Source of the DNA: Rhizaria sp. SCN 62-66
Lineage: Eukaryota
DNA length: 21,779 nucleotides
Assembly (NCBI GenBank): GCA_001724265.1
Contig: MEDY01000088.1
Coordinates: forward strand, 62,001-83,779
Direction: 5' to 3'
Positions within the stretch are counted from its first letter, which is position 1; each line of letters starts with the position of its first letter. Below, piece after piece: positions 1 to 18,472 of the stretch. A program made the position numbers and the translations under genes. The notes beneath the pieces are model-generated. The model had not been told where the DNA came from. It searched no databases and was given only the letters and a program-made list of their open reading frames with translations.

Positions 1-111
1 CATTTTTCTGATCTTCATAACGCTTCTTCATGTCTCTCGTTTGTTCTCTTGCTTTCTACCCCTCAGCACAGACTTCATTTATTTGCAGACACAACGCGTG
101 TGACTGCACCG

Positions 112-3100
112 ATGCTAAAAAGCAGTGCCCAGTTGGGCTCACATGCGCTGCCAAGCATCTCCGCGCCCGCGGTTCTGATTGCACGTGCTCTGTATCACAG
201 CTCCCCAACTGCTGTCAATGATGCTAGTTGCGTCATGCAGAACCGTCCGTTCGCACGTCGCATCCACACCTCCACACCGTCCGTTGCATCTGAGGCTGCT
301 GCGTTGCCGCTGCCCGTGCGCGCCCCTGCGCGCGCAATCTCGACCGTGACCCGCGCCAAGCGTCCGCCTTCGACGCCCGCGCCGGGCTACGTGTCGCCAT
401 CGGTGCCCGTGGCGATCACGCTGCGCGACGCGACGGGCCGCGTGATGGAGGGCCACACGCTCGCGGACGCAATGCTCGACGACGTGGCGCTGCACTCTGC
501 GCGCTTCCGCGCCGACCACGCGCGCGCGCCGAAGCTGGCCGTGGTGCTCGTTGGGCGCCGCGCCGACAGCCAGAAGTACGTGCGCGTCAAGCGGCGCACC
601 GCGCTGTGCGTTGGCATTGACACAGACGTGCTCGAGCTGCCGTCGCAGATCTCGATGGACGCGCTGCTGCAGCGCATCACGGCGCTTAACGCGGACGACA
701 CGGTCGACGGCATCATCATCCAGCTGCCGCTTCCCGCGCACCTCGACGCCACGCTCGCGCTGCAGACCGTGGACCCCATCAAGGACGTCGACGGCTTCCA
801 CTACGCCAACCAGGCCTCGCTGCTCGACGCTGATCACTTCAACAAGCAGCCCGCGTTTGGCTTTCGGCCCCACGCCCCCGGCGCGCCCTTCACTGCGCCG
901 GCCGGCGAGAGCGCCACCGCGCCCGTCAGCGCCGCCGCCGCCGTCGCTGCGGCTGAGTCCGCCGCCGTCGCTGCGGGCTACGCGCAGGCGCCGCACCCGC
1001 CGACCGGCGCGCCGGGCCCCGCGCCCGCGACGGTGCCCGCGGCGCGGCCCGCGCTGACGCCGTCGTCCTTCTCGCGCGCCCGCGAGCCCGCGCCGCTGGC
1101 GTCGACGCTGTTCCCCTCGACGCCGCTGGCGTGCCTCGCGCTACTTGACGCCTATGCGATCCCGCTGCGCGGCGCGCACGTGGTGGTGCTGGGCCGCAGC
1201 GCGGTCGTGGGCTTCCCGCTGTCGCTGATGCTGATGCACCGCGGCGCCGCGGTGTCCTCAGCCGACGCCAACGCCGACGCGCAGACGGTGCGCGAGCTCT
1301 GCCAGTCTGCAGATGTCGTCGTCACGGCTGTCGGGAAGCCTGGCTTTGTGACGCAGGACCTTTTGAAGCCTGGCGCGGTCGTGATTGATGTCGGCATCAA
1401 CTTCGTTGACCAGGACGATCTTCCGGTGATGCACCATCTTTCGCCTCTCTACCCAGAGGTTGCTGCCGCGCCGGCGACGACGGGTGACACAAAGACCAGT
1501 GCAAGTACCACTGATACCACGGTTGACATTGCGGCCGCTCACGTTTGTGAGGACGGAGATCGTGTGGTCGCAGGACGTTGTAGCCCTGCTTTCTTGGACT
1601 TCATGTCTCTCTCCAAACCCATCTCTGGCAGCAGCGCCAGCAGTGCAACAGTCACTATGTCTTCGATGACGCACGGACCGACAACAAACACCGCTGGCTC
1701 CGCCACAACTTTCACAGAGTGTCCCGTGCTGTCTGCCGCGGCTACTACGCGGACCGCGCTGGCCGCGCTAGTTTCGCGCGGACTCGACTGCCAATCATCA
1801 TCGTCGTCATCGTTCGCGAGTGCTGCGCATGCCGGCCCCGGTCCACGCTCTGCCACTACGGCGCCGCCGACGACTGCTTCGTTAACTGCGTCCTCCTCCT
1901 CACTTTTCTTTGGCGCGCACCATGGCGCCAACAAGAGTAACTCATTTAACAACAGTGCTGACGCTCCCGCGCATCCACTCAGTACCGCCGCAGCCGACCA
2001 CGGCGAGCATGTTACTGCTGGCACTGGCACCGGTCAGGGCGAGGTGCCGAATGTGACGCTGATGACGTACTGCATCCCGGTGCGTCGCTATGACTGCGTG
2101 GATCGACCCGACCCGCCCGCCGTGTCTGCAGCGGCCGCAGCTGCGACGGCCGCCGCAGCTTCCGCTGCAGCCGCCGCAGCGGCCACTGCAGCCGGTCCGC
2201 TCTTTGGGGCCTCAGGCGCGAGCGCCGGTGCGGGCGCCGCCGCAGCCGCGGAGCAGGGCCCGCGCCATCTGTCCGGCTCGGCAGCTGGTTCGCTTGCGAT
2301 GCGGTCCTCGCACCTCTCGCCGCTGCCGCCGCCACCGCCGCGGGGCGCGCTGGCCGACCCCAGCGACTGGGACCACAAGCCTTATGACATGCGCCATAGC
2401 AGCAACACCGGCAACCCCAGTGTGGGCACCCACGGCGCTCATGCTGCTGAGGCCTCTGTGTCCTCCACGTCCGAGGCCGGCGCTGCCGCTGCTGAGGCGC
2501 TTGACGGCTTTGCACAGGAACCCGCGCCGCCGCGGCCCGGAATGCTTTCTCCGGCAGACGCCGCTGCGCTCGCGGATCTTGAGTCGGGCTCTCCGCCGCG
2601 GTCTGTCACCACGACCGCTGCAGCGCACGGTGCGTTCACGCTGTCCACATCAACGTCTCCGTCTTCGTCGCCTTTTGCAGTCAAGACGGAGTCGGTGACC
2701 ACGTCGGGGGACATCGCGGCCGTGGTCGACACAACTGCCGGGGTGAGTGACGCGTCCGTGCGCCTTGGCAGCGCCGGCAGCTCCGGTGCGATGCTGTCGC
2801 GGCCGTCGGCGTCGCTGCTGCTACCGGACCCCTTTCTGTTCCCCGATCTTGGCGCTACGTTCACTTCGTTCTCCTCCGTCTTCACGTCGTGGACCTCCCC
2901 CGACCTTTTCTCAGCGCCTGCCCACGCCGCTGCTCGCGTTGCGCACGGGCCGCGCGGCGCGGCCAGCGGCGACGGGCTGCCCGAAAGGCCACACCCACAT
3001 GCGGCATTGCCTGGCTCCGGCGTTGTCACGAGTGACTTCACCAGCACAGGTGCTAGTCATGTAGTCGGCGCTGCGCCGCTGGTGACCGTGATGGCCCAAA

Positions 3101-4149
3101 CAACCACGACGGCAACTGCGATTGTTGACAGCCATAGCGCTGACCACGCGGCGTCTGCTGCGCTGGCAGCGGCCTCGGCAACTGCAGGCTCTGCTGCCGC
3201 GGCGTCTGTCTCGCTCGCGCTCGCTGGTCGTGCTGCGCGCCCCCGCGGCACAGCGCACGTTGCCGCCCTGTCCGACAACAGCGCAGACGAATCCGCCCCA
3301 GGCCGGCGCGCCGTGAAGCTCAGCGTGATGGCGGCCTCGCGTGTGACGGTCTTCGGCGCGAGCGCGGAACATGCTGGACAGCCTTTTCCCCTTTCCGTTG
3401 GCCCTGCCGCCGCAAACGCAGGAGCCGTGCTCGTCGGCGCTCCCGGGCACGCGAGCCGTGCGCGCGGCGCTGGGGTCGATCAGTCGACCGATGGCGCGGC
3501 AAGCTCTGACGCCGTGGGCGCTTCTGTGCTTTCGATCCAGCCCGATGATGGCATGTTCAGCGCCGCCACGCACACCACGAACAGCTCAGGCAGTGCAGTC
3601 ACAGTTGATTCCGAGTCGTTCCCGTTTGCTATGCACTCCGCTGGCAACGCGACTGCCGCGATGAACACCGCAGTCATGGACGAAAGTTCCAGCAGTGCGC
3701 TGAAGCAAGTTCCGACCTCCCTCTCGCTGCCTGCATTTGCCACGAGTCCCGCGGTCGCGCCGCTTCCGGAGCGCCGCCCCCCTACAGCCCATGCGCACGC
3801 GCACGCTCCGACGTCAGTTGCAGCGGCGGTGGCCCCCGTCGCCGTGGACGTGATCGGGGCAGGCAAGCGCCGCGGGAGTGGCCACGCTGGGGCTAATGGC
3901 GGGAGCGGGGACAGCAAGCCGCCGGGTGCCGCCGCGGGCAAGCCCGGCGCGCGGCGCGTCGTGATGGTGGGTGATGCTGACTTTGCATCGGTGCTCACCG
4001 TCGCAAAGCTTGCGACCCCGGTGCCTGGCGGTGTTGGGCCTGTAACCGTGGCCACACTGCTGCGCAACACAGTTACAGCAGCGCACCTTGTCGCCAAGCG
4101 CGCGAAGGGACAAGGATTCTTCTCGTTCTTTACGTCTTGGTACAAGTAA
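112..4149 (+). CDS. folD: Methylenetetrahydrofolate dehydrogenase/cyclohydrolase (FolD/MTHFD family), 1345 aa from ATG 112, probably mitochondrial, with two large low-complexity insertions
   Basis: Motifs in order: PKLAVVLVG, SQKYVRVK (YxxxK), VDGIIIQLPLP, KDVDGFH, FPSTP, VVVLGRSAVVGFP, ADVVVTAVGKP, LKPGAVVIDVGINF, then after the insertion VGDADF and TPVPGGVGPVTVATLLRNT. The N-terminus is Arg/Ser/Ala-rich like a presequence. Stop TAA 4147-4149. The start is uncertain because an acceptor-like ttatttgcag ends at 88, so an upstream exon may lie outside the window. Confidence 0.92.
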   Translation: MLKSSAQLGSHALPSISAPAVLIARALYHSSPTAVNDASCVMQNRPFARRIHTSTPSVASEAAALPLPVRAPARAISTVTRAKRPPSTPAPGYVSPSVPVAITLRDATGRVMEGHTLADAMLDDVALHSARFRADHARAPKLAVVLVGRRADSQKYVRVKRRTALCVGIDTDVLELPSQISMDALLQRITALNADDTVDGIIIQLPLPAHLDATLALQTVDPIKDVDGFHYANQASLLDADHFNKQPAFGFRPHAPGAPFTAPAGESATAPVSAAAAVAAAESAAVAAGYAQAPHPPTGAPGPAPATVPAARPALTPSSFSRAREPAPLASTLFPSTPLACLALLDAYAIPLRGAHVVVLGRSAVVGFPLSLMLMHRGAAVSSADANADAQTVRELCQSADVVVTAVGKPGFVTQDLLKPGAVVIDVGINFVDQDDLPVMHHLSPLYPEVAAAPATTGDTKTSASTTDTTVDIAAAHVCEDGDRVVAGRCSPAFLDFMSLSKPISGSSASSATVTMSSMTHGPTTNTAGSATTFTECPVLSAAATTRTALAALVSRGLDCQSSSSSSFASAAHAGPGPRSATTAPPTTASLTASSSSLFFGAHHGANKSNSFNNSADAPAHPLSTAAADHGEHVTAGTGTGQGEVPNVTLMTYCIPVRRYDCVDRPDPPAVSAAAAAATAAAASAAAAAAATAAGPLFGASGASAGAGAAAAAEQGPRHLSGSAAGSLAMRSSHLSPLPPPPPRGALADPSDWDHKPYDMRHSSNTGNPSVGTHGAHAAEASVSSTSEAGAAAAEALDGFAQEPAPPRPGMLSPADAAALADLESGSPPRSVTTTAAAHGAFTLSTSTSPSSSPFAVKTESVTTSGDIAAVVDTTAGVSDASVRLGSAGSSGAMLSRPSASLLLPDPFLFPDLGATFTSFSSVFTSWTSPDLFSAPAHAAARVAHGPRGAASGDGLPERPHPHAALPGSGVVTSDFTSTGASHVVGAAPLVTVMAQTTTTATAIVDSHSADHAASAALAAASATAGSAAAASVSLALAGRAARPRGTAHVAALSDNSADESAPGRRAVKLSVMAASRVTVFGASAEHAGQPFPLSVGPAAANAGAVLVGAPGHASRARGAGVDQSTDGAASSDAVGASVLSIQPDDGMFSAATHTTNSSGSAVTVDSESFPFAMHSAGNATAAMNTAVMDESSSSALKQVPTSLSLPAFATSPAVAPLPERRPPTAHAHAHAPTSVAAAVAPVAVDVIGAGKRRGSGHAGANGGSGDSKPPGAAAGKPGARRVVMVGDADFASVLTVAKLATPVPGGVGPVTVATLLRNTVTAAHLVAKRAKGQGFFSFFTSWYK

Positions 4150-4562
4150 ACACAAAACATGTTCCACCCTCTAAATCGAACAGACAATATTTATTAATCA
4201 TCTTATTCGCTATTTATCACTCATTTTTAAAGATCGATATTCACAAATAAAAACACGTGAAATTACACGACGTATACTAAATGGGACTTTCTCATGTTGG
4301 ATTCGAAAGAAGGTCCATAGGCCGGACACATAAAGATGACAGTCGAATCTCCCACTTTGACGATCGGTAAAACTGCTTACGTCGGCTTCACAAGTACAAT
4401 ATCCTCCTTTCTCTTTTAAAACGATGTATACGAAACGAATTAGTATATTACATGTAGCTAATTTTCGTAAATGCCTCAACACAAGATAGTGCACTGTATC
4501 TTTCAAAAAAGAGTAACACTGTGCACGCGACAGCGCACCGACTTGATGTTTGATTTGCAACG

Positions 4563-6670
4563 TCACTCATTGTCGTCATGGTCACCTTTGCGATCATCAT
4601 TGCCGTCATCGTCGTCAGAGCTGCCCGCCCGCCCCCCCTCAGCGCGCCTGAGGGTGCGTTCCAGCTGCTGCAGGCTGCCGGCCTCATAGCCGAACTTGCG
4701 CACGGCGGTGTTGGGCATGCCTAAGCACCGCGCAAGCGGAAGCGGCAGCCCGAAGACCTCCTGGAAGAGGCGCCGCGCGTTGGCCGCGACGCCGAAGCGC
4801 GAGCAGCGCCGCAGCGCGCGCCGCAGCCCCGCGCCGTCGAGCCCGGCGACGACGGCGCGGCACGCCGCGGCCTCCTTAAGCTTCACAAAGGGCAGCAGGT
4901 CCGCGTCCAGCGCCTGAGTCAGCGCCGCGCGAATCGTCTGCACACGGGTCCCCGCGGCAGCCGAAACGTGGCCCGCGCCAGTGCCAGTGCCAGCGCCAGT
5001 GAGCGCGCCAGCAAGGACGCCCGCGTCGCCCGCGCCAGCGCCAGCGCCGGACGCGGCGAGGGCGGGGCGCGCGCGTTTAACGCGCGACGCGGCCCGGCCT
5101 TCGCTCTCGCCCCCAGAGCCTTCGGCAGCATCGCCGTCGCCGCGCCCGCGCTCACGGCCCTGACCGTCACGACCCGGACCGTCGCGGCCTTGACCGCGTC
5201 CACGGCCGCCGCCACGCTCGCGCCCGCGCGTGGTGGAGGCGCCGACCGCGCCGTTGCGGCGGCTGGACGTGGCGCGTTTGCGGCCTCGATCGCGCGCGGT
5301 GCTGCTGCGGTTGTTGTCATCGTCGAAGTCGTCCTTCTTGTCATCGCCCTCGCTGTCATGGTCGTCGTTGCTGTCGTCGCCAACATCAGCGTCGTCACAT
5401 TCATTGCTGTCGTCACATTCGTCTGAGCACCCTGAGCCGTCGTAGTCGCCGCTTTCGTTTTCGCTCTCACCGTCGCTGGCGCGGCGCAAGGCCCGGCGTG
5501 AAGCGGACCTCCGAGGGGCGGGCCCCTTGCGCTGGGGCGTGCCGTCCGGGCCGGTCATCCAGCCGCCGGCGCCGAGCCCGGCCGTCGTCGTCGACACCAT
5601 GCCCCTGCCGGCCGAGGGCTCCCGCTGCAGCGCGGCCGCGAGCAGCCGCGCCTCAGCTCGCGCCGCGGCCGCCGACTGCGCGGGCAGCGGCGGCGGCGCA
5701 ACGGGCTCGCCCGGCCACACGGACTGCGCGGCCGGGCCGACGGGGCCCGCGGCGTCACTGGCCAGGACCACGGCGCCGGGGCCCGGGGACGCGGCGGCAG
5801 AGCGGGCCGGAGAGGCGGTCGCATCGCGCGGCATCAGCGCGCCGCCCGTCTTCGCAGCCAGCTGTTTGCCGCGCTTGGAGGATTTGAACACCGTGCCGAG
5901 ACGGAGACTGAGTGCACCAGAGATCGTGGGCCGATTATTACGCAACAAAAATGAAGGCAACGGTAGGAGACCGTAGCGGTTGGATAACGCAAATGATGAC
6001 GCTAAGTCAAGTTGGCACGGAAATGGAATACACACGCGGTTGTCGTGCGTTCGCCACATCGCAGACGATGGGTTGCTGATTAAGATGAAAAGAAGAAGAA
6101 AAAAAAAAAGAGGAGCAAACGAACGTAAGATTATCGAATGAGAACTACAAAAAGGAAGATATCAGATCTTTCTATCTGATGCATACGAGTTAACTGTCAC
6201 ATTGTGAGAGCAACATTTGACAAGAGCAACAGATAGAGTTGGATTCATAACGTCTTAGCCCAACCAACGGGTAGATAACAAGAGAGTAAACATATGTTAA
6301 GATGCATGTGGTAAACACAATTGACGCACTCGAGAATGATTTGGTCCCACGTTTCCACCGGCAGCGGCGCGCTGTCCCCGAGCGCGACGCCGGGTCGCGG
6401 ACGGTGGCGCAGCGTGTGGTAGACGTAGTAACCGTCGCGCAGGATCGGCTCCACGCGGTGCAATGCGCGCGTAACAAGTTCCCCGTCAAACTCCACCCCG
6501 GGCTCGCCCGCGTAGTCGGTGCGCAGAGCTGCGGCGATGCGCGACGCAAGCGTATCAGGGTAGTACAGACGCAGACGCGCGAAGTGGTGATGCAACTCCT
6601 GGAGACGGACCAGCCGTGACGGCGTCCAGATCACAGCCAACTTGCGCGCATCAGCATCGTCCGTGTCCAT
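4563..6670 (-). CDS. Two-exon protein of about 617 aa (exons 6670-6330, 6075-4563): Myb/SANT-trihelix-like N-terminal domain, acidic and RG-rich low-complexity middle, short C-terminal helical domain; paralogue of 7314-8944
   Basis: Donor GA|GTGCGT at 6329 and acceptor (long T-tract)...AATCAG| at 6076 join in frame as WDQIILD-NPSSAMWRTHDNRV. The same motif series occurs in the neighbouring gene. Stop TGA. The domain name is by pattern only. Confidence 0.75.
6076..6329 (-). other. Spliceosomal intron, 254 nt, phase 2
   Basis: GTGCGT donor; strong polypyrimidine tract (A/G run at about 6087-6110 on +) followed by CAG; restores the reading frame. Confidence 0.8.
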
Positions 6671-7313: not shown

Positions 7314-8944
7314 TTACACCTGGCGTGCTTTCTTGGTGCCTGCATGCGTTGTCGGTGCGTCGTTGTTGTCCGACACGGGGGGCTGCCAGCGCACGTAGCG
7401 GTGCGTCTTGAGATTCATCTGCATCCCGGGCATCTCGCTGGGGTTCATGATGAACCGCTCGTTCTTGGCCATCGCGAACTTGTTCGCGAGCGAGACGGCG
7501 CTCGAGCGCACCGCCTCCTGCGCCGGCGCGTCCTCGGGCGCGGTCGGCGCCGGAGCCGGCACTGCGTTGGCCAGCGCGGCCGCGCCGCGCGGGGGAATCA
7601 GCGAGGGAAGCCAGACCGGCGGCAGGCGGATGATGGAGTGCTGCTGACTCTTTTTGGCGCTGCGACGATTTTCCGACGGCTGCGGCAGGATGTCGTTAGC
7701 ATCAAAGAGCGCATACAGCGCCTCAAACGACGGCCGCACGTGCAACATCCATGGCTGCACGCGACCGGCGCGGTCACGCAAGCGCTCGGCGGGCGGGTGA
7801 CTAGAGTCGGTCAAAAGCCCGAAACAGAAGTGAAAATAGGAGTGGAGTGAGCTAAAACAAAGAGTTTTGCTGTAGCAACAACAAAGAATATACAATAATG
7901 GATTAAACAAGCCAAATGCGGTTCCAATAAACAGCACTGTAAGTAATTGCTCAGTATAGTGCACATTCATACGAATATACGTCAGATTTGTGATGATTAT
8001 CTCAAGATAGTAGACATCCAAACGTACTCGGCGATAATAGCGTCCCACACCTTGGGCGCGATGGGCTCGAAGAAGCCGAAGCCGTCGGCGGGCAGCCCCG
8101 CGCGCCGGCGGTGCGCGCGGTCAAAGTAGACGAAATATTCGTCGGCGTACCAGTCGGCCAGCGTGCGCACGCGGTCACGCACGCCCTTGGCGCTGAAAGG
8201 CAGGTGCATCGTCGTCAGTTTGAGGCTTTTGCCGTAAAGCCTCTTGTCGCCGGTGTAGATCTTGGTCTTGGCGGGGGTCCTTTTGCCCTTGTGGCGTCTT
8301 TCGTCATCATCATCATCTTCTTCTTCACCGTCATCGTCGTCATCGTCGCAGTCGTCGTCATCGTCATCGTCATCGTCGTCACCACCTGCGTCGCCGTCAT
8401 TGTCGTCGCTGACGCCGTCATCGTCGCCGTCATCACCCTCGGCGCCGCTAGCGTTGCCGCTCGCGTTGCTGCTGGCGTTGCCGCTCGCGTTACCGTTCGT
8501 TCTAGCACCCGCGTCCGCGCTCGCAGAGGCGGCGCTCCCTTCACCGTCGGCGGCGGCCCGCTCGGCGACCTCTTGCGCGACGCAGTGGTTCAGGCGGCGC
8601 GCAATCGCGGCAAACAGCACGGCCTGGTCGTGTATGGGTGGGCTGTGGTGCCGCATGTAGTAGCAGTAGAGCTGCATCGCGAGCATCATCGTCGGGACGG
8701 TCCATAGACTGCCCGCTGGCACGGGCGCGTCGGGGCCCGCGTCGTTGGCTGCCGCCCAGTCCGCCGGATTCGCCAGCCCGCGCGGAAGACGCCACCTGCG
8801 CGGCGCGGCAGCTGCAGACTGTGCGGCGACTGAAGTGGCACGTGCTGCCTCCTCGCCTTCAGTGGCAGCTGCAGGGCCAGCTGCAGCGGCTGCGGCCGCG
8901 GTGGCAGCGGCGGCGATGTCAATGACTGATCGAGTCGGGTCCAT
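7314..8944 (-). CDS. Two-exon protein of about 467 aa (exons 8944-8028, 7800-7314): Myb/SANT-trihelix-like domain split by a poly-Asp insertion; paralogue of 4563-6670
   Basis: Donor GA|GTACGT at 8027 and acceptor ...GACTCTAG| at 7801 give in-frame WDAIIAD-HPPAERLRDR. Pattern WT.....LY...LFAAIARRLN...FSAKGVRDRVRTLADWY. Stop TAA. Confidence 0.75.
7801..8027 (-). other. Spliceosomal intron, 227 nt, phase 2
   Basis: GTACGT donor, AT-rich body, pyrimidine-rich 3' end with TAG acceptor; joins ORFs 7997-8992 and 7314-8048 in frame. Confidence 0.8.
8300..8435 (-). repeat. Imperfect GAT/GAC/GAA trinucleotide array encoding a poly-Asp/Glu tract
   Basis: (tca/tcg)n on the + strand; translates on the - strand to DDDDDDDDDCDDDDDDGEEEDDDDDE. 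Confidence 0.85.
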
Positions 8945-9584
8945 ATGGACAGCAGGCTCTCCAGAGAAACGAAGTTGCGGCAGGTGTAACAAAAAAACAA
9001 TAGTTTAACCAACTGCTTCAACGGGTGCACTATCTAAATTGTTAGCTTGTGATCTTTTGATGCGGTGAATAACTTTGCGAGCACGAAGAAGGTCGAGAAT
9101 GTCAGAGAGAAGAATGTGAGTAAATTACAGTCCCTATGATGTGAATACATCGCCACAGAGAGTATTATAAAAATATTATCTAAAAAAACGTGATAACATA
9201 TCCGTATCAGCACGATATGCTCTTTAACGGACATTATAATACACGGTTGACTTTGCCGTACAGCCAATTTGGGCGGCATTGTCACTGTGCCTTGCCATCA
9301 ACGTGGCGAGAAATCGATTTGTGGTGGCAGTGCATGCAGCTCCTGCGTGCGCCTCCTCTAAAACATCTGCAATCTCATCGTTTTACATTTTCATTGTCTT
9401 CTCTTCTGTTATTTCGTTTTGCTCTATCAGTATTATGTGTGTTTTAATGTGTTTTTCTTTTATGTCTCTGAAATCTACGTATTCATACCACAACTCGCAT
9501 CCTTATACTCCTACAGAACATCGCTTTCCCATCAGTATCTCATTTCCTAACTCTTTGACAAAGCACGCTAGACATCAACACGAG

Positions 9585-12374
9585 ATGTTGTCTAGTGGCT
9601 CGGTGTGGAATGTAGTGTCCACAGACGGCGTGTGCAAGACGATGCATTAGTATTTGACTGGCATGATGTCACTCTCTCCCAACTACGATGCCACGAAATA
9701 TCATGAGTTGTGGACCGAGATCCGTTTGGGCTCGGTGGGAGCATGTTGTGGCAACGGAAAAACGTACGAGGACCATCTTATGGAGATTCTGGTTGAGTCG
9801 AACTTTGTTACGTTTCTCTCCCAGTCTCTCTGTCCGTTTCAGCTCAGTGGTCAAGATGTCCGGTTGCAGCGTTTACACATCACCAGGATCCTGGACACCT
9901 GCTCAAAATCGACAAAGGTCGGCACGGTGATCTCTGCGTTTGGCATGCTACAGACTTTGCTGACTGCTCTTCGCCACCCAAACATTGGACAGGAAAGTTG
10001 TTTTGCTCTGCCCCTGCTCCGGCTCTTTCGCTGCGCGCGCGCGGCTGTGCCGGCGCAGTCGGTCGCCGAGCGCATCGACACCGCCGACGCGCTGATAACC
10101 GCCGTGCAAAGCAGCAACGCGTCTGCTGCACTACTCCCTGCCTAGAAAACGACTCTGATTATGTTCTGGTGTGACGACATGCTGACTTTGTGTGGCAGCG
10201 GCAGCAGCAATGGCAGCAGCAATGGCAGCGGCAGCGGCAGCGGCAGTGGCAGGAGCAGTGGCAGCGGCAGTGGCAGCAGTGACAATAATCAGGGCCTACA
10301 AACAACTCCGCCGCCGCTGCCGGTGGCCATTGTGGCCTCTGTCATGGGTATTTTGGTTGACTATCTCATGTTTGACAACAAATCCCATGCCGTGTTTCAC
10401 TACGACTCGATCATTCCCGCCGCGCCTTTGCTGAGCGCTCTCTTCCAGTGCAATCAGCATGAGCGTATTAACAGCGACTGTGAGCGTATCGAGAGTGACC
10501 GTGATGCCCGCGACGCTCTGTTGGTCGAGTTTGCGCTCAGCCGCTTGTTTGATCGCGTTTTCGGTGCCCTCCACAAGGTACTTCAGGACTTTCAGCAAAG
10601 AGCGATGCTGTTCCTGCTGATTCGCGTTGCCAGCTTTGACCCTGCTGTTGTAGAACGCATCTTTACCGAATCGAGGTTAAACAACCTTGCGGGGCTGAAC
10701 GTTTTGCCGAAGGAATCCGCCACCCTCTACGCAATTATAATCACGCGTTTGTTGCAAGGACCCCGTGCTGTGGCGCAGCGTGTATTTGCAGCCGCGTCGC
10801 GCTCACCTGGCAGCGTGCGTTACGTGCTGGTAAACAGTGCAGTGAGTGACTTGGACGCTAGTGACTGGCTTGTAGACAAAGAATACGACACCGCGGCTGC
10901 GGAAAGAGCGCGTGAGCGTCTGCCCGCGTATCAAAAGCTGGTCGAAGTCATTGTTGATACCTGGACGGAGGCTGCAATCATCATGCCACTTGATAATGCT
11001 GATAATTTGGTGCCTTGGACGCCTGATTTGTCGCGAATCGAGTCGTTTATTGCTTCGGGTTTACTCAGTGCCGTCTTGGATAGCCCTGATAGCAGCAGCG
11101 CCAGCGTTAGTAGTAGCTCGAGTAGCAGGAGCAGCAGCACTACTATTATGACAGCGCGACTGTTGCGTGTGCTTAGGAAACTAATCGCAAGCACAGAGAC
11201 GGTCGCTCTGTGGGAGCAGCGCGTACGAGGCGAAAAGGTGCCAACAAATCGCTTTGTTGAGTTCTACAGCTCTGACAGTCTGCGGTGCAACATTTTCGAC
11301 CTACTGCTCATGGCAGATTGCACCCTCTGTGACGGTGACAATAACCCCGTGATGCGTGAACTGCTACCAATGCTCTCAGCACCGGAGTGCTGCAAGCTCT
11401 TTTCTAACTCAGAGCGCGAACTTCGCGGGGCTGGGAACTCTGACTGGCGGCGAGCGGTTGAGGATGTGGCGCGCTTTGCTCAGGGCTTTAAGGGCGGCTG
11501 GAGGGAGGCGTTTGACGCATACATTGCGGTAGAGCTTGAGAATCACGGATTCCCTCGTCGCCGCGTTGTTACAAACCTGTTACGTCTCACAACTATGACA
11601 CTTCTGGATACGCCCGCGCCAGTGGTCTCGCACGGCCCACCGACTCCATCTGCGTTGTCGCTGTTGCAGCGGCGCGTGCGACTACTGATGAGGGCAAATT
11701 CATTTAGTTATGTGTGGCAAAGGGAGTTGTCAGTTCGGTTTGATGTACACAACGCCGCTCAGGTCCGGCAAAGCAAGTTTGACCTTATTGTCTCTCCTGA
11801 CAGGGCATATGGTGACGACGATGAGCTTAACTGTCACATTGCGTTCTTCATGCTTGGCTCAAAAGTATGGCAAGGCGCTTTTGCTCAACTACACTCATGT
11901 TGCTTACCCCCCGGTTTGAGCGCTGCAGATGCACCCTTTGTCACACTCTTTTACGGTGATTTCGGCCTTCCCTGTTTCCCACACCATGTCACACTGCCAG
12001 AGACTGACACTGTGTTTGGCGAGTATACGCTCCCCAGTGATATCGACACTCTGACGTACCCCGCTGGCACGGTGCTGCTCCGGTCGCGCTCGCTTTTGCC
12101 AAGCTCGATCCCCTCGCTGCTCTTTGTCGTTTTCAAGCCCTGTCCGGCAACGTTGCTGCGTGGCGCAGTGCCCATTGGACGCGTTGTGGGTTGCGGCAGC
12201 AACGACGTTGCGCTCTCGCAAGCCGACCTGCAGATCAAGGATAGGCCGCCGTTTACAGAGGAGCGTGTGAGCTGGCTTGAGTCGTTTTGCGCTGCGAGGC
12301 GGTGCAGCAAACGCAGCAGAGCAAACTGTGGTGCGCAAGGTACGCTGGTATTTTAGCAACAGGCGCCGTCCTAA
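9585..12374 (+). CDS. Large protein of about 929 codons if TAG is read through: ARM/importin-alpha-like helical region plus a degenerate cyclophilin-like domain; 3' end uncertain
   Basis: ORFs 9279-9650, 9654-10145 and 10161-12356 are all in one frame and separated only by TAG (9648, 10143). ATG at 9585. After the TAG at 12354 the frame ends at tandem TAA TGA (12372-12377). The Leu-rich amphipathic character continues across the TAGs. Cyclophilin-like motifs lie at about 11733-12210. Confidence 0.65.
10194..10280 (+). repeat. Imperfect GGCAGC hexamer array encoding a Gly-Ser linker
   Basis: ggcagcggcagcagcaatggcagc... translates to GSGSSNGSSNGSGSGSGSGRSSGSGSGSS. Confidence 0.85.
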
Positions 12375-12828
12375 TGACGAACCATTACACCCGCTTAAAC
12401 AGCTTATCCGCGCTTATTCAAATTTGTGTGTACAAATGCACATGTACATGCACTGATGCTGCATGCCACCGTCCATACAGTAACCTCGCAAACTTCGTTG
12501 AATCGAGAGCCAAAGATGAGGTCGTATGCTGACATGTTGGTTTCAAATAACAAACTATTCCACTGATGTTGTGTAAATTCGGCGATGTATAATGGAGATA
12601 TTCGTTCAACTCGATAATACGTTACTATGGTTACACAGGTGTACAGTTTTTGCATGTGGTCAGAAGATGCCTTAAGATAACTCCTCTTTTATACACATTG
12701 ATATAGTCACTTGTACCGTTGATTGGGCATTTGTTTTATGAGATCACTATTTTATGAACTTGATAGTCTTGTGTTCTTCAGTCAGGCGAGGCAAAATGCG
12801 TTTCAACCTGTAGTGAGTACGCGCTGTG

Positions 12829-13365
12829 TCAGTTGGACACGTAGTGTGTTGCGACAGCAGCAACCGGCGGTTTGGAGAGGAACTGCTCGTCAGTGAAGAG
12901 CACGTGAGCTGGTTTGGGTTGTTTTGTGCGACGGAGCCGTGCAGCTGCAAAAGCAGTAACGCAGTAAATGGTGGGGCGCAAGATAAGCCGTCAGTCTAAC
13001 TTACCTTGTTTCGCAATCACGCTAAATAGAAAATACGATATCACGTTTAAGCAAGAACCTTGATACAACAAAGACATCAAAATCACAAAATGTTCACTTG
13101 AAAAATGCACTGGACCCAAATCAACATGAGATCGTTTGACAAATGGGTACCTATGATGTAAACATGATTATGATAAAGACTTCTGCAAAACTCGGGCGAA
13201 GACTATAATATGTGTGATTAGCAAGAAAACCATCTGTATTATTGCCGCTAGGTATTACCTGAGATTCCTGTTCTTTCCTCTGGGCGCCTCTGCATCATTG
13301 GCACAACAACGCACACTCAACTGGCGGGCGGTGCGACGCCCCCTGTTCAACTAAAATAACTTCAT
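12829..13365 (-). CDS. Tentative small basic protein of about 79 aa, 3 exons (13365-13259, 13021-13005, 12944-12829); not in the ORF track
   Basis: Donors AG|GTAATA (13258) and AAG|GTAAGT (13004), acceptors TTTTCTATTTAG (13022) and CTTTTGCAG (12945). Spliced frame: MKLF*LNRGRRTARQLSVRCCANDAEAPRGKNRNLSVIAKQAARLRRTKQPKPAHVLFTDEQFLSKPPVAAVATHYVSN then TGA, where * is TAG at 13353-13351. No family recognised. Confidence 0.35.
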
Positions 13366-13590
13366 TTCGCTTCACTCGTATAACACACTCGTACACTCCA
13401 CACAAACGCACTAACACCCGCCTGTACTGACGGATTCAGATAGGACGTACGTACACACGGGTGGGTCTGTGTCTGTTGGATACTGCTGTGGTGACGCGGT
13501 GATGCTTTGCTTGCTTGCTCGCTGAACTCACGGCGCGACCGTGCGCTCGCGGCGAGCACAGCAGCAAGCTGCTCGCGTACAGCAGAGCGC

Positions 13591-14595
13591 TTACTCGTCG
13601 GCCTTGGGCTTGCGGTAGGCAGAGGGCTTGAGGACGCCGATGTAAGGCAGAGTGCGGAACTCCTCGTTGAAGTCCATGCCGTAGCCGACGACGAACTTGT
13701 CCTCAACGGGGAAGCCATTAAAGTCGATGTCGATGGGGGTGAGACGGCGTTCCTCCTTGTTGAGCAGCGTGCACAGCTTCAGCGACGCGGGCTTCTTGCT
13801 CTGCATGTGCTTGAGGATCCACGCAAGCGTGGTTCCGGTGTCGATGAGGTCCTCGACGATGAGCACGTGGGCGCCCTCGATGCTCATGTCCAGGTCCTTC
13901 TTCATGATGACGTTGCCCGTCGTGTGGGTGTCAGCGTAAGAAGAAACGCAGATGAAGTCGATCACGGTCGGCACAGTGAGCTGGCGGATCAGGTCAGCCA
14001 TGAACAGGATCGAGCCCTTGAGGAGGCCGACAGCGACGATACGCTTGCCCTCGTAGTGAGTAGAGATCTCCTGTGAAGCGCGAAGTTGACCGACAAAACA
14101 TAGTGGGAATGTGTCAAGAATGTGGCAAAACCGCATAAATGGATAAAATTTCGAGATGTGAGTGGGCCTTCTTTCGAAAAAACAAGTCTTCATTGCGTTA
14201 TGGTGCGTTATGATCGAGAAATGCAACGCAATGCAAGACCGAAGCGGTGTTTGGGATTTGTGAAGGTTCGACGTACGCGGGCGAGCTCAGTGATACGGGT
14301 CTGGATCTGCTCCGTGGTGAAGAGGATCTCGCCGATCTTAGCGCCAAGCTCCGGGGGAGTGTTGGGGAAGTCCTTGGGACTGCGTGTGGGAATGAAGCAC
14401 GGCGCAGCGAGGTGAGTGGCACAACGGAGGGGACGGAGGGTGACGAGAGGAAAGTGAGTTGAAAAGCGGAACTAAAGCGCATTTGCGAGTGTGTTGACAA
14501 TGCGGGGCTCGTATAGGCAATGCGTTGGCATGAGGAAATGCAAGGCAACGTTAATATTTGGCGCGAAAGACGTACAGGTGGAAGTCCTCAGACAT
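13591..14595 (-). CDS. hpt: Hypoxanthine(-guanine) phosphoribosyltransferase, 200 aa, 3 exons (14595-14576, 14379-14277, 14070-13591)
   Basis: Spliced product MSEDFHLPKDFPNTPPELGAKIGEILFTTEQIQTRITELAREISTHYEGKRIVAVGLLKGS...SSY...VLIVEDLIDTGTTL (PRPP-binding loop)...LLNK...FVVGYGMDFNEEFRTLPYIGVL. Stop TAA. Confidence 0.96.
14071..14276 (-). other. HPRT intron 2, 206 nt, phase 0
   Basis: GTACGT donor, CTTCACAG acceptor; restores the conserved ELAR-EIS. Confidence 0.92.
14380..14575 (-). other. HPRT intron 1, 196 nt, phase 2
   Basis: GTACGT donor, CCCACACGCAG acceptor; links ATG 14595 in frame. Confidence 0.85.
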
Positions 14596-15153
14596 GTGCG
14601 AAGACCTGGAAGCGAGGCAAAACGGGGTTGCGGTTCAGAAGCGGCAAAGATGAGTGAAACGGCCCGCGGGACGCATACAAAATAGAAAATAGAGAGAAAC
14701 CCTTGCAAAGTTTTCCGACACTAAAAAACACTCCCCCCGCCTGGGGGGGTTATCACGATAGCCCCACCATGTCGTCCGCACCGCTCCGCGTCCTGAACAC
14801 CCCGGACCAAAACGGACTGGAGCCGAAGACTGTGGGCCAAATCAAGCCGCTCTTTTGCTCACAGTCATCAATCGGTCTCATGCACAGCTTTCCTCAGTGG
14901 TTCATTTCTTTGTGTGGATCGAAACGGCGTGTGCAAAAGCGTGTTCTCCAAGTGGGTTAAAAGAAATATTGGTATAATACTCATCGATTTTTTTCTTTTT
15001 GGTGTTTATTTTTTGACAGACGTTCATTCTGGCTTGAGCCTGTCCACTTTAGCGACTTCCTCTACCCCCTCACTCTCTCACGTTACCCTTCGCCCTTGGC
15101 TCAGACCTCGCTCATACGCCACAGCGGCTGCCCCTGCACTCCAGCACATCGCC
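14596..15153. promoter_or_regulatory. Probable divergent promoter / 5' UTR region between HPRT and the FYVE-SH3 gene
   Basis: About 560 nt between two head-to-head start codons; inferred from position only, no element identified. Confidence 0.4.
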
Positions 15154-17690
15154 ATGTCCGCCCTACTCGTTGACCCCGACCCGCTGCACGTCGTTGAGGC
15201 CTGGGTCGACCACCTCGGTACGTTTGCATCCGCCTCGATGCATCATCTCGCCTTCGCCTTCACCCCTCTCAACCTTCCCGAATCCCGTTCTGTAGCCGCT
15301 CGCCAACAGCCGTCTTCCGACTGCAATTGATGCCATCGCGTGCTTTTGTGAACGGTTGCTATTTTATTGGTCTGTCATAGTGATTTTTACTTTTCTGTAA
15401 CTCTACATTTGCTCAAATCATCTCACGATCCCTCTGCTCTCTTCTGCTCTCCTCTGTCTCCCTTTGCGCAGACGCGCCGCAATGGGTGAAACGTTCGTCG
15501 ACCAACACGTGCCACCACTGCGAGTCCGTCCTGACGACGGGTTATGACTCGCACTGCCGTCTGTGCGGCCGCATCTACTGCCACTCGTGCACCGCCAAGC
15601 GCCACCTCCCCGTGCGGTTCGAGAAGAAGCTCACCGCCGCGCCCCGCCCCGGTGCGCGCTCCATCCCCATCACCAACGGCTCCGTCTGCGCGCGCGCATG
15701 CCTTGACTGCCTGCGTCAGGTTCAGGCGCGCCGCTAGGCTGTGCTGGCCGAGTGCACCAAGCTCGACCCTTCCTCGCGCCACTGCGTCGAAGTACTCGTC
15801 AAGCGCACGAGCTCCGCGCACTCGCCGGCCATCTCTCCCGTCCTGCACGTCTTCTCCGCCGTCCCTGCCACGGCGACGGCGGCGCAGCTTTACGCGACGC
15901 TGATCAAGGCGCGCCCCGACCTTGCTGACTGCGTGCTCACATGCAAGGGCCGCTACCTCCCGCGCGAGCTGCTCGACGTTGTCACGGCGCGCCACCTCGC
16001 ACCCGTGTTGTACATCGACACAAACGCCTCGCTCACGGTCACCTCGGCGCTGCTGCACTCGGATCTCCCGCGCCTCGACGCCGGCACGCTTGCCACACCC
16101 ACCACCGCGGCCGCTGCCGCCGTCGGAGCCTCCGCCGCAGTCGCGACTCCGTCCCCCGCAGTTGGCGCCGTGACTAGGGGGTCGGCGTCCGTGGGCTTCA
16201 CTCCCGGGTACGCCCCCACGCCGTCCCCGCTCCTGGCGCCCTCCGCAGCGCCAGCGCCCGCGGTGGGCGTGGCTCTCAGCAGCAGCAGCAGCAGCAGCAG
16301 TAGCAGTAGTAGTGCGAGCAGGAGCAGCAGCAGTGCGACGCCTGTGTCTCTGTCAGCCATCGTCGCGGCCAGAGCTGCCGCCTATGCCCAGAACAACAAC
16401 AACAGCAACAATTATGTCACAGCGACGACATCCTCATCATCGTCATCATCGTCTGCGGCGGGGACTGGGGCTGCTCTTGGGGGGCCCGGGATGGGCCTCG
16501 CAGTGCCCCACAATGGTCCCTCCGCTTCAGGCTCCGGCGCGCCCCCGTCCCCTTTACCGAACAACGCCGCCGCTGTTTCGGCTGCGGCGGCCTCGGGGCT
16601 CTACTCGACCATCACGGCCGGCTCCGTCTCTGGCTCCGCGCCCCCGCCCCCGCCGCCGCCGCCGCCCCTCTTTGTCACCGCCCCCGGCGCTGGTGCGGCG
16701 CAGTCTGGCATCTCGTCGCCCATCGCGAGTACCGGCTCGCTGCCCAACACCACGCCCCTCAGCCTGAACGCTGCTGCTGCTGGTGCGCCGCCGCCGCCCC
16801 CGCCGCCGCCGCCGCCGCCGCCCGCGACAGGCCTCCCCAGCGGGCTCGTCGCCCGCTCCCCCACCCACGGCAACTACGCTACGGTCCGCGGCGTCCGGTC
16901 CAACTACGCGACGCTCAACCTCACCAGCGCCGGGGTCAGCGGCGCGGGCACGTCCCCGCGCGCGTCGCCCTCCTTCGGCTCCGGTGCCAGCCCGCCCGGC
17001 AGCGCGGCGGCGGCCGGGACTGGCCAGAGCCAGATGCAGTACGGCTACCGGTCGGTCGGGCCGGCGTCGCACCAGCACGTCGCCGCCGCCGCCGCCGCCG
17101 CCGCGGGCCGCGGTAGTGTAGGCGGGGCGGGGTCCGGCGCCGGTGCCCCGCTGTTCCTGCAGCGCGCAGGCTCAAACACCTCCAACGCCTCCGCCAACGC
17201 GGCTGCCAACGCGCTCGCAGCGCTGTACACCGACCTGGCGCCCGCGCTCAACGCCACGGGCGCCAGCGGCGGCGACGGCGGCAACGGCGGCGGCGCGGCG
17301 GCGAGCAACGGCAGCGGCGCCGGCAGCAGCGGCAGCGGCGGGTCGGGCGGCGCGAGCATAGACATGGCCGCGCTGCGCCTGGCCTCGGCCGCTGGCCAGG
17401 GCCCGCGGTTGACTGACGAGAACGACAAGCCGCTGTTCGGTATATGGGTGCAGGCGAAGTACAACTACTCGTCGGTCAAGGGCGAGGAGTACCTGAGCTT
17501 TGCGCAGGGCGAGATGCTCCGCATCACCAGCCGGTCCTCGGCCATGAACTGGTGGGCCGTCAACAGCTACGGCAAAAAGGGATGGATTCCGCCCTCGTAC
17601 GTCGCAGTGCTCGACGGGCAGGACAAGGAGATCGCGGCTGAGGAGGAGAAGAGGCGCAAGAAGGCCGCGCAAGCCGCCGCCGCGCAGTAA
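15154..17690 (+). CDS. Atypical FYVE-like zinc finger, small possibly ubiquitin-like domain, Pro/Ala/Ser-rich region and C-terminal SH3; about 760 aa, 2 exons (15154-15217, 15472-17690), one internal in-frame TAG at 15735-15737
   Basis: PQWVKR...CHHC...HCRLCGRIYCHSC...RACLDC has FYVE cysteine spacing. Two polyproline runs. SH3 at 17436-17612: VQAKYNY...EYLSFAQGE...NWW...GKKGWIPPSYV. Stop TAA. ORFs 15486-15737 and 15741-17690 are in the same frame. Confidence 0.85.
15218..15471 (+). other. Spliceosomal intron, 254 nt, phase 1
   Basis: G|GTACGT donor; long CT-rich tract then GCGCAG; gives in-frame WVDHLD-APQWV. Confidence 0.85.
16278..16334 (+). repeat. (AGC/AGT)n microsatellite encoding poly-Ser
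   Basis: agcagcagcagcagcagcagcagtagcagtagtagt... Confidence 0.9.
16785..16823 (+). repeat. (CCG)n array encoding polyproline; a second run lies at about 16641-16667
   Basis: ccgccgccgccgcccccgccgccgccgccgccgccgccc. Confidence 0.9.
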
Positions 17691-18472
17691 GCGCAGTACG
17701 CAGTCTCTTTGTAGTGCTTTGCTTTGACTAAAATGAACCTCCGCTATTAGTTTGATGGACGTTTTGTAATAAGTGTACGGATCTGTACTGCGTGCTTTTT
17801 CCGTGGTATAGTGTATAGATAGGTGTAACAAGAGTTATTTTTGCGTTGAATTCGTACGTGTCGCTGTATGCGTATTGTCTAAGTGTTATATATCACCCCG
17901 TAAATATGTTCTGTTTGTAACCTGTGGCTGTCCTGTCTTGCTCTGCTCTTTCTATATCGTTTATTTCGTCGTGTATATGTGTGTGTTTATGACTATGTGA
18001 TGGAGAAAAAGGAACGAATAACGATAGAACAAGAGCAGAAGCGAGTGTACGATTGCCCGAAGGCTTCATGTGTTGACGTCATAAGTGTTGTTTTTGATTT
18101 TGTGTTTTCTCACTCTTGTAGTTTTGACTTTCATAAGATCCTCTCATATTGACGTCGGCGGTGATGATCCTTGCTGATCGGATGTTGATGTGGACTGAAT
18201 TCTGGTAATTCCCCGTGTATTTAGGACTACTCACGCCTCAAATAATACATACATGTTTATATGCTGCTGCATCGTCAACTTAAAGACAAGTGTCACACAT
18301 GGCCCTCTGCTGCGTGACAGGGAGGCTGGCGCCCAGAGAGACGTGAGGGCTACTCTGATGGCCAAATCTTTTGAACACACAGAAGGGTGAATAACCGTAG
18401 TTTGCGAAGGCGCTCGTAACCGTTGCGGTGAAGAAGCGTTGGAACAAAACTAACTTGTTATTTTATCACGGA

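Follow-up and report, generated by a model that had tools for sequence, protein, structure and literature searches.

In-frame TAG codons in the window

The question raised by this locus is whether the organism that carries it reads UAG as an amino acid. The window analysed here is a 21,779-nucleotide stretch of contig MEDY01000088.1, to which all coordinates refer unless another contig is named. It contains two genes, gene A and a gene for a FYVE-SH3 protein, with TAG codons inside otherwise continuous frames. An earlier note on this DNA had proposed that UAG is a sense codon while UAA and UGA remain stops. From the evidence given below, the organism most likely does read UAG as an amino acid, with UAA and UGA still serving as stop codons. 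TAG codons are flanked on either side by homologous coding sequence in two separate expressed genes, and they are stable across samples. The window is nuclear DNA from an uncultured eukaryote, and spliceosomal introns occur in it. The following codons are concerned:

9648..9650, + strand, TAG, codon 22 of gene A; weak site
10143..10145, + strand, TAG, codon 187 of gene A; strong site
12354..12356, + strand, TAG, codon 924 of gene A, six codons ahead of TAA-TGA; ambiguous, either a sense codon or the point where gene A terminates or once terminated
15735..15737, + strand, TAG, codon 110 of the FYVE-SH3 gene, directly past the FYVE finger and ahead of a conserved middle domain; strong site

The reading frame, the third-position GC signal (GC3) and the codon-usage score run unbroken through the TAGs. 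The flanking residues quoted earlier for positions 9648, 10143 and 15735 were reproduced, and the TAG at 12354 was also found in frame. A fifth candidate, at 13353-13351, had to be given up, as it lies in the 3' untranslated region of the purine-salvage gene HPRT, past the TAA (13591-13593) of a spliced, RNA-supported model. The core of the earlier proposal gained support, from homologues across two TAGs, from other assemblies and from the form of the introns, while only two of its five cited sites proved strong. The UAG count is low, with three or four in 4783 codons (about 0.08%).

It is barely plausible that the TAGs are missing from the genome or the mRNA altogether, owing either to assembly or base-call errors or to small in-frame introns. 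For the first of these, metagenome contigs from two other studies (X3 and X4) were compared letter by letter with the window. TAG 9648 was kept in X3 record 4 (8388-9713) and X4 record 11 (9072-10222), TAG 10143 in X4 record 11, TAG 12354 in X3 record 5 and X4 record 13, and TAG 15735 in X3 record 6 (14700-16245). The comparison of X4 with the window gave 35 difference rows. A second contig, which is divergent (15507-15593), accounts for part of these rows, and none of the 35 concerns a TAG. Independent assemblies thus show identical letters at every TAG, and base-call errors do not account for these codons.

Probable continuation of the FYVE-SH3 gene across TAG 15735

The gene that carries the fourth TAG was modelled as follows:

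15154..15217, + strand, exon 1 with the ATG at 15154; modelled from the frame and the splice signals, with no RNA joint listed
15218..15471, + strand, intron of 254 nucleotides, GTACGT..CAG, with the donor hexamer of two RNA-confirmed HPRT introns
15472..17690, + strand, exon 2 with the FYVE finger, the TAG, the middle domain, a low-complexity region, the SH3 domain and the TAA at 17688-17690

The whole model comprises 760 codons, and no in-frame ATG was found within the FYVE exon. Pfam families were matched on either side of the TAG, with FYVE upstream of it (E 3.3e-9) and SH3 at the C-terminus (E 4e-8). A search for near-length proteins with residues 1-230 of the read-through product returned no match. 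In an exhaustive HMMER search the first 230 residues gave 68 matches, of which the seven with a best stretch crossing or approaching the TAG column were aligned. FYVE finger, middle domain and C-terminal SH3 domain occurred in one chain and in the same order in all seven.

The sequence past the TAG is recognisable by itself. When its first 101 residues alone were compared with the middle domain of the homologues, hhalign gave a probability of 96.5% (E 7.6e-10), and BLASTP with the post-TAG region alone against P0008 gave an E value of 7e-9. For the post-TAG SH3 domain against the homologue profile, the hhalign probability was 97.8%. The next in-frame methionine lies 252 codons past the TAG, at 16491, beyond the middle domain, so that this conserved domain comes more than 150 codons ahead of any in-frame methionine. 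RNA-library contigs cover 15749-16238, 15833-16245, 17360-17857 and 17454-17738 of this region. With standard decoding there would be no way to translate this pair of domains, which is conserved and transcribed. As to which amino acid is inserted, serine is the commonest residue at the column of TAG 15735 (three of seven homologues), and P0067 reads ARRSALL where the window reads ARR(TAG)AVL; one column decides nothing.

Introns and mRNA editing

For small in-frame introns as the source of the TAGs, the introns of the HPRT gene serve as a standard:

13591..14595, - strand, HPRT gene, 200 amino acids, three exons joined in cDNA contigs, TAA at 13591-13593

Its introns measure 206 nucleotides (14071-14276) and 196 nucleotides (14380-14575), with cDNA joints at 14069>14276 and 14379>14576. 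Together with that of the FYVE-SH3 gene, the three introns seen or modelled in the window are 196, 206 and 254 nucleotides long, start with a GTACGT donor, end in CAG and have a comparatively low GC of 44-54%. A GTACGT donor is also present at 8027 on the - strand, and so strict a donor consensus could aid gene modelling and the placement of the lineage.

Removal of the TAGs by splicing can draw on several features: TAG itself ends in AG, a pyrimidine-rich run lies ahead of TAG 10143, GTACGC at 12340 comes near the donor consensus, and an 18-nucleotide GT..AG pair encloses TAG 15735. Around the latter, 18 frame-keeping GT..AG pairs were found, none of them with a GTACGT donor. According to our reading of their coordinates against the homologue alignment, the pairs of intron size (at least 120 nucleotides) would delete conserved FYVE cysteines, namely the last ones of the finger (the invariant C76 and C79), or part of the middle domain. 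Of the two longest candidates (15612-15887 and 15684-15887), the 3' part is moreover contained in the X5 contig 15749-16238. The other pairs span 18-84 nucleotides, far below any intron seen in the window. At TAG 10143, the alignment with the homologue is gapless. Because real introns in this DNA are about 200-250 nucleotides long with GTACGT..CAG borders, mini-introns do not explain the TAGs. An intron at the 3' end of gene A starting from the GTACGC at 12340 may exist; this donor is missing in the related contig L001 and in a decayed fragment downstream of gene A (both described below).

A further possibility is that the codons are restored in the mRNA by editing, for example by adenosine-to-inosine (A-to-I) conversion, which would turn UAG into UGG. 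So far as is known, restorative editing of this type is confined to some ascomycetes and, within them, to the sexual stages. That the in-frame stops seen here are TAG alone, never TGA or TAA, speaks in its favour. In filamentous ascomycetes the premature stops of about 71 'pseudogenes' are corrected by A-to-I editing, according to the available excerpts of two reports (PMC10776026, PMC11156358), and the excerpt of the second states that such editing prefers U at position -1, hence UAG (PMC11156358). Editing of this kind predicts tryptophan at the homologous columns, whereas tryptophan was found in none of the nine homologue residues at the three internal TAG columns. The RNA libraries X5 and X6 gave no row with another letter at a TAG, their cover of those sites being not known, and the single named homologue comes from the rhizarian Plasmodiophora and not from an ascomycete. 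We therefore regard editing as very improbable.

Gene A and its three TAG codons

The other three TAGs lie in the following gene:

9585..12374, + strand, gene A, 929 codons with the TAGs read through, TAA at 12372-12374 followed directly by TGA
12860-12990, + strand, decayed partial copy of the last ~40 codons of gene A (its 3' end), ending in TAA

No Pfam family was matched by gene A, and a search of 5.8 billion proteins returned two relatives, namely P0001, which is a called piece of the window itself, and P0002 (880 amino acids). The latter is 53% identical (E = 0) and covers 97% of gene A, with the BLASTP alignment extending over residues 14-911. Gene A is a lineage-specific protein. A search for shorter proteins with residues 1-300 returned only the window's own 159-amino-acid piece P0074. 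Gene callers have cut gene A into two database proteins, P0074 and P0001. A metagenome scan with query A1 returned the related contig L001 as its sole result, and scans of genome contigs and viral contigs with the same query gave no match. L001 is not syntenic with the window, and both its genes end in TAA.

At TAG 10143, which lies in a gapless stretch of the alignment, P0002 has histidine. Identity to P0002 is 48% over residues 23-186 and 43% over residues 188-400, and since it is similar on either side of the TAG, both sides are under the same constraint. The site at 9648 is weaker. The N-terminal 21 residues of gene A are only 25% identical to P0002, and ATGATG at 9663 is a possible alternative start. 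On the other hand, gene A and the homologous gene both begin with ATG-(TTG)-TCT-AGT at a similar distance. Reading through TAG 12354 would add five residues ahead of TAA-TGA; in L001 this TAG aligns with CAA, and the next codon there is TAA.

Some further observations concern gene A and its relative. The X4 population shows a CAA insertion at 9575/9576, 10 nucleotides upstream of the ATG of gene A, and in part of the depth a 3-nucleotide in-frame deletion at 11118; both of these indels in or near gene A keep the frame. In L001, at its positions 3205-3262, similarity to the C-terminus of gene A carries on in the +1 frame past an A7 run (ending in ANCGAHDTLTAQ and a stop), while the called protein stops after SEKN. 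This shift of frame is probably real and not a homopolymer error, as a second assembly (P0078) has the same C-terminus. A structure prediction of gene A with AlphaFold2, based on a two-row alignment, was unusable, with a mean predicted local distance difference test (pLDDT) of 36.8 and a predicted template modelling score (pTM) of 0.28.

Terminators and the distribution of stop codons

If UAG is a sense codon, it should be absent from the ends of genes. Among the seven firmly modelled genes of the window, four end in TAA and three in TGA, and the terminator tally of the earlier note (seven genes, never TAG) therefore holds:

TAA terminators, firm models: FolD-domain open reading frame (4147), gene ending at 7314, HPRT (13591), FYVE-SH3 (17688)
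TGA terminators, firm models: gene ending at 4563, PhyH (20277), Skp1_POZ/Elongin C-like (21419)

An eighth gene, less firmly modelled, has a probable TAA at 6190. The statement that internal TAA and TGA do not occur was likewise borne out, with none of either in nine coding segments totalling 4783 codons. UAG may never act as a true terminator in this genome, yet TAG 12354 could be a stop, and seven genes are too small a sample. Taken together, the locus fits a code in which UAG alone has become sense: in-frame UAG occurs in homologous coding sequence, in-frame UAA and UGA are absent, and no firm gene model ends in UAG.

The distribution of the TAGs among the genes also agrees with this. Of the rare AT-rich codons in the window, 38% lie in gene A (53% for TTG, 52% for CAA), which holds 19% of the window's codons; it is therefore unremarkable under reassignment that three of the four TAGs lie within it, and such clustering in a weakly codon-biased gene is as expected for a rare codon.

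Nonsense mutation or context-dependent reading

Several observations weigh against a sense meaning of UAG. The sample is small, with two strong sites among about ten genes. Conservation is poor at each of the four TAG columns, where the homologue residues (G at 9648; H at 10143; T, S, S, G, S, K and G at 15735; Q at 12354) give no consistent amino acid. Among the pieces listed, no RNA contig spans a TAG, one of them (X5 record 20) beginning 12 nucleotides past TAG 15735. No tRNA and no other Rfam family was found in the window by ARAGORN and Rfam. L001 has no in-frame TAG in its 880 + 771 codons, which is uninformative at such a UAG density. At the end of gene A, TAG 12354 falls, in a gapless nucleotide alignment, on the TAA in which the decayed copy (12860-12990) ends, which fits TAG as a stop, and the copy itself points to a gene family that duplicates and decays locally. 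Finally, under the codon usage of this DNA, TAG makes up 0.55-0.57 of all one-step nonsense mutations, and if nothing but nonsense mutation were at work, three premature stops out of three would be TAG with a probability of about 0.17. Because some 55% of one-step nonsense mutations yield TAG, it is weak evidence for reassignment that all premature stops are TAG.

The main rival is that the code is standard and that the TAGs are recent nonsense mutations fixed in the population. In that case gene A is either a pseudogene of recent origin or a split gene, the latter consisting of a 159-amino-acid piece and a 731-amino-acid piece that ends normally at TAG 12354, and the FYVE-SH3 protein would be truncated past its FYVE finger. 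An ATG six codons past TAG 10143 and the division of gene A into P0074 and P0001 by the gene callers agree with a fission. In addition to the mutational preference for TAG and the poor conservation of every TAG column, nonsense mutation is favoured by the decayed fragment of the same family 500 nucleotides downstream of gene A, whose TAA stop aligns with TAG 12354. However, it needs hits in two of about ten neighbouring genes, and not a single frameshift was found in the 1689 codons of gene A (929) and the FYVE-SH3 gene (760). The premature stops include no TAA or TGA, TAG terminators are lacking among the firm genes, and conservation is equal on either side of TAG 10143. RNA-library contigs occur past TAG 15735, where the conserved middle domain lies far ahead of any in-frame methionine, and the TAGs persist in samples from three studies. 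Hence the marks of a pseudogene, namely frameshifts, mixed stop types and lost constraint or expression, were not found, while a very recent nonsense allele is compatible with the data. We consider nonsense mutation unlikely, with a small but appreciable probability.

The meaning of UAG could also be ambiguous or depend on context, so that internal codons are read through by a suppressor or near-cognate tRNA and termination occurs near true 3' ends; TAG 12354 would then be a working stop. Context-dependent stop codons are known from Condylostoma and karyorelict ciliates, and from the UAA of Blastocrithidia. In line with this, TAG 12354 coincides in position with the stop of the paralogous fragment, the TAA of L001 is one codon away, and the UAG density is low. 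On the other hand, these positions concern one site only, and a short, harmless extension to a TAA-TGA six codons on is equally expected after full reassignment. The four TAGs, moreover, share no common downstream context. We regard this alternative as quite improbable.

Under the favoured reading, that UAG specifies an amino acid throughout, the mechanism would probably resemble that of known cases. A tRNA with the anticodon CUA, derived from an ordinary tRNA, would read UAG, and UAA would keep its stop meaning because a CUA anticodon does not pair with it. The release factor eRF1, whose gene was absent from the window, would recognise UAG poorly or be outcompeted at this codon.

Organism and other features of the window

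Coding stretches in the window are GC-rich (up to 73%) and the spacers are AT-richer, the overall range being 44-73%. The approximately ten genes include, by Pfam matches, the FolD-domain open reading frame, HPRT, a PhyH-type dioxygenase, the Skp1_POZ/Elongin C-like gene and FYVE-SH3. When ten further open reading frames were compared with Pfam, Skp1_POZ was the sole family matched. The DNA of the organism, covering at least part of the window, was present in bioreactor, wastewater and activated-sludge metagenomes (at least ten runs from seven studies, a tally that possibly includes the window's own source run). A FYVE-type protein of the rhizarian Plasmodiophora brassicae was the only named relative obtained for any protein of the window. 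From this match the lineage may be rhizarian, which is a hint and no placement. A comparison of an HPRT exon with genome contigs returned two Saprospiraceae loci of 38-39% identity, which were judged irrelevant, and the FolD domain matched the ESM Atlas only at family level.

In an open frame of at least 1382 codons (window 1-4149, + strand), the FolD (tetrahydrofolate dehydrogenase/cyclohydrolase) domains take up residues 149-472. The rest of this frame, about 900 codons, is domain-free, GC-rich and stop-free, and RNA-library contigs lie over 2788-4376; the C-terminal extension is unusually long for a FolD. At 7314-8944 and 6190-6670, both on the - strand, there are two neighbouring paralogous genes without a Pfam family. 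The motif ...W[DQ].II.E[YC]V at the C-terminal end of exon 1 is common to both, and an intron of each falls at the same codon. The gene at 7314-8944 has an acidic poly-D/E tract, and its GTACGT donor at 8027 can be combined with three possible acceptors to give introns of 158-227 nucleotides.

Coding microsatellites were found at 10190-10290, 16246-16411 and 17267-17341, where runs of GGC/AGC encode GS, poly-Ser, poly-Ala and poly-Pro. In all four runs they drew deep cross-mapping from other organisms, with depths of up to 216 compared with about 5-8 elsewhere, and many false joints. Many joints have sides of 20-25 nucleotides and link GC-rich stretches of low complexity (5002>19602 and 10244>16392 are examples); these were treated as cross-matches to repeats or other organisms.

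Relation to known UAG-only codes

Our literature searches turned up no wastewater eukaryote for which such a code is described. If the sense reading of UAG is true, the window adds an independent case from which to learn how UAG becomes uncoupled from UAA. The protist concerned is GC-rich, bears introns and is common in the environment, and a low-density, possibly early stage of reassignment would be open to study. Standard-code gene callers would then have split the proteins of this organism in public databases, P0074 and P0001 being pieces of one gene. A more specific proposal, to which we give about an even chance, is an independent reassignment of UAG alone in an undescribed non-ciliate lineage that recurs in wastewater reactors and may be rhizarian. 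It would be at an early, low-density stage in which former terminators such as TAG 12354 are read through; the amino acid would perhaps be neither leucine nor glutamine.

Separate meanings of UAG and UAA are few, being reported, in the excerpts of two papers on which the following comparisons draw, from one rhizarian, one fornicate, one green alga and some ciliates (PMC5304391, PMC11687900). The rhizarian, a sainouroid known as Rhizaria sp. exLh and obtained from the bug Lygus hesperus, reads UAG as leucine and keeps UAA and UGA as stops; 71 of its genes contain 384 in-frame UAGs, most of them at columns where leucine is conserved (Panek et al., 2017; PMC5304391). The window resembles exLh in the use of UAG alone as a sense codon in a non-ciliate and in having only UAA or UGA as terminators, and it may do so in lineage as well, as the P. 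brassicae homologue makes a rhizarian origin possible. In contrast to exLh, it holds three or four UAGs in about ten genes, none of them at a leucine column, and its habitat is wastewater reactors.

In the fornicate Iotanema spirale, UAG encodes glutamine and UAA and UGA are stops, UAG making up about 8% of the glutamine codons. In 81 of its transcripts the first downstream UAG is a sense codon and a true UAA or UGA comes thereafter, and the authors caution that a low abundance of UAG can mask such a code (PMC5304391). An uncoupled code and a low share of UAG are common to Iotanema and the window, and the pattern of the 81 transcripts resembles that at TAG 12354. Iotanema differs in belonging to another supergroup, and a hint of glutamine is seen in the window only at the weak column 12354 (CAA in L001).

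Among phyllopharyngean ciliates, UAG encodes leucine in three metagenome-assembled genomes from TARA and glutamine in Hartmannula sinica and Trochilia petrani (McGowan et al., 2024; PMC11687900). For the green alga Scotinosphaera, the same excerpt gives serine (PMC11687900). Genes for a tRNA(CUA) were found in two of these metagenome-assembled genomes, and the argument that a CUA anticodon leaves UAA as a stop is given there (PMC11687900). As in these genomes, the UAG-only reassignment proposed here is derived from metagenome sequence. The phyllopharyngeans are AT-rich, with tiny introns and nanochromosome-like contigs, whereas the window has 44-73% GC and introns of 200-250 nucleotides. In its density of UAG the window is nearer to the low-usage case cautioned for relatives of Iotanema than to exLh. 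An uncoupled UAG code is a rare but already known change (similar to NCBI tables 15 and 16), to which the window, if the reading is true, would add a case.

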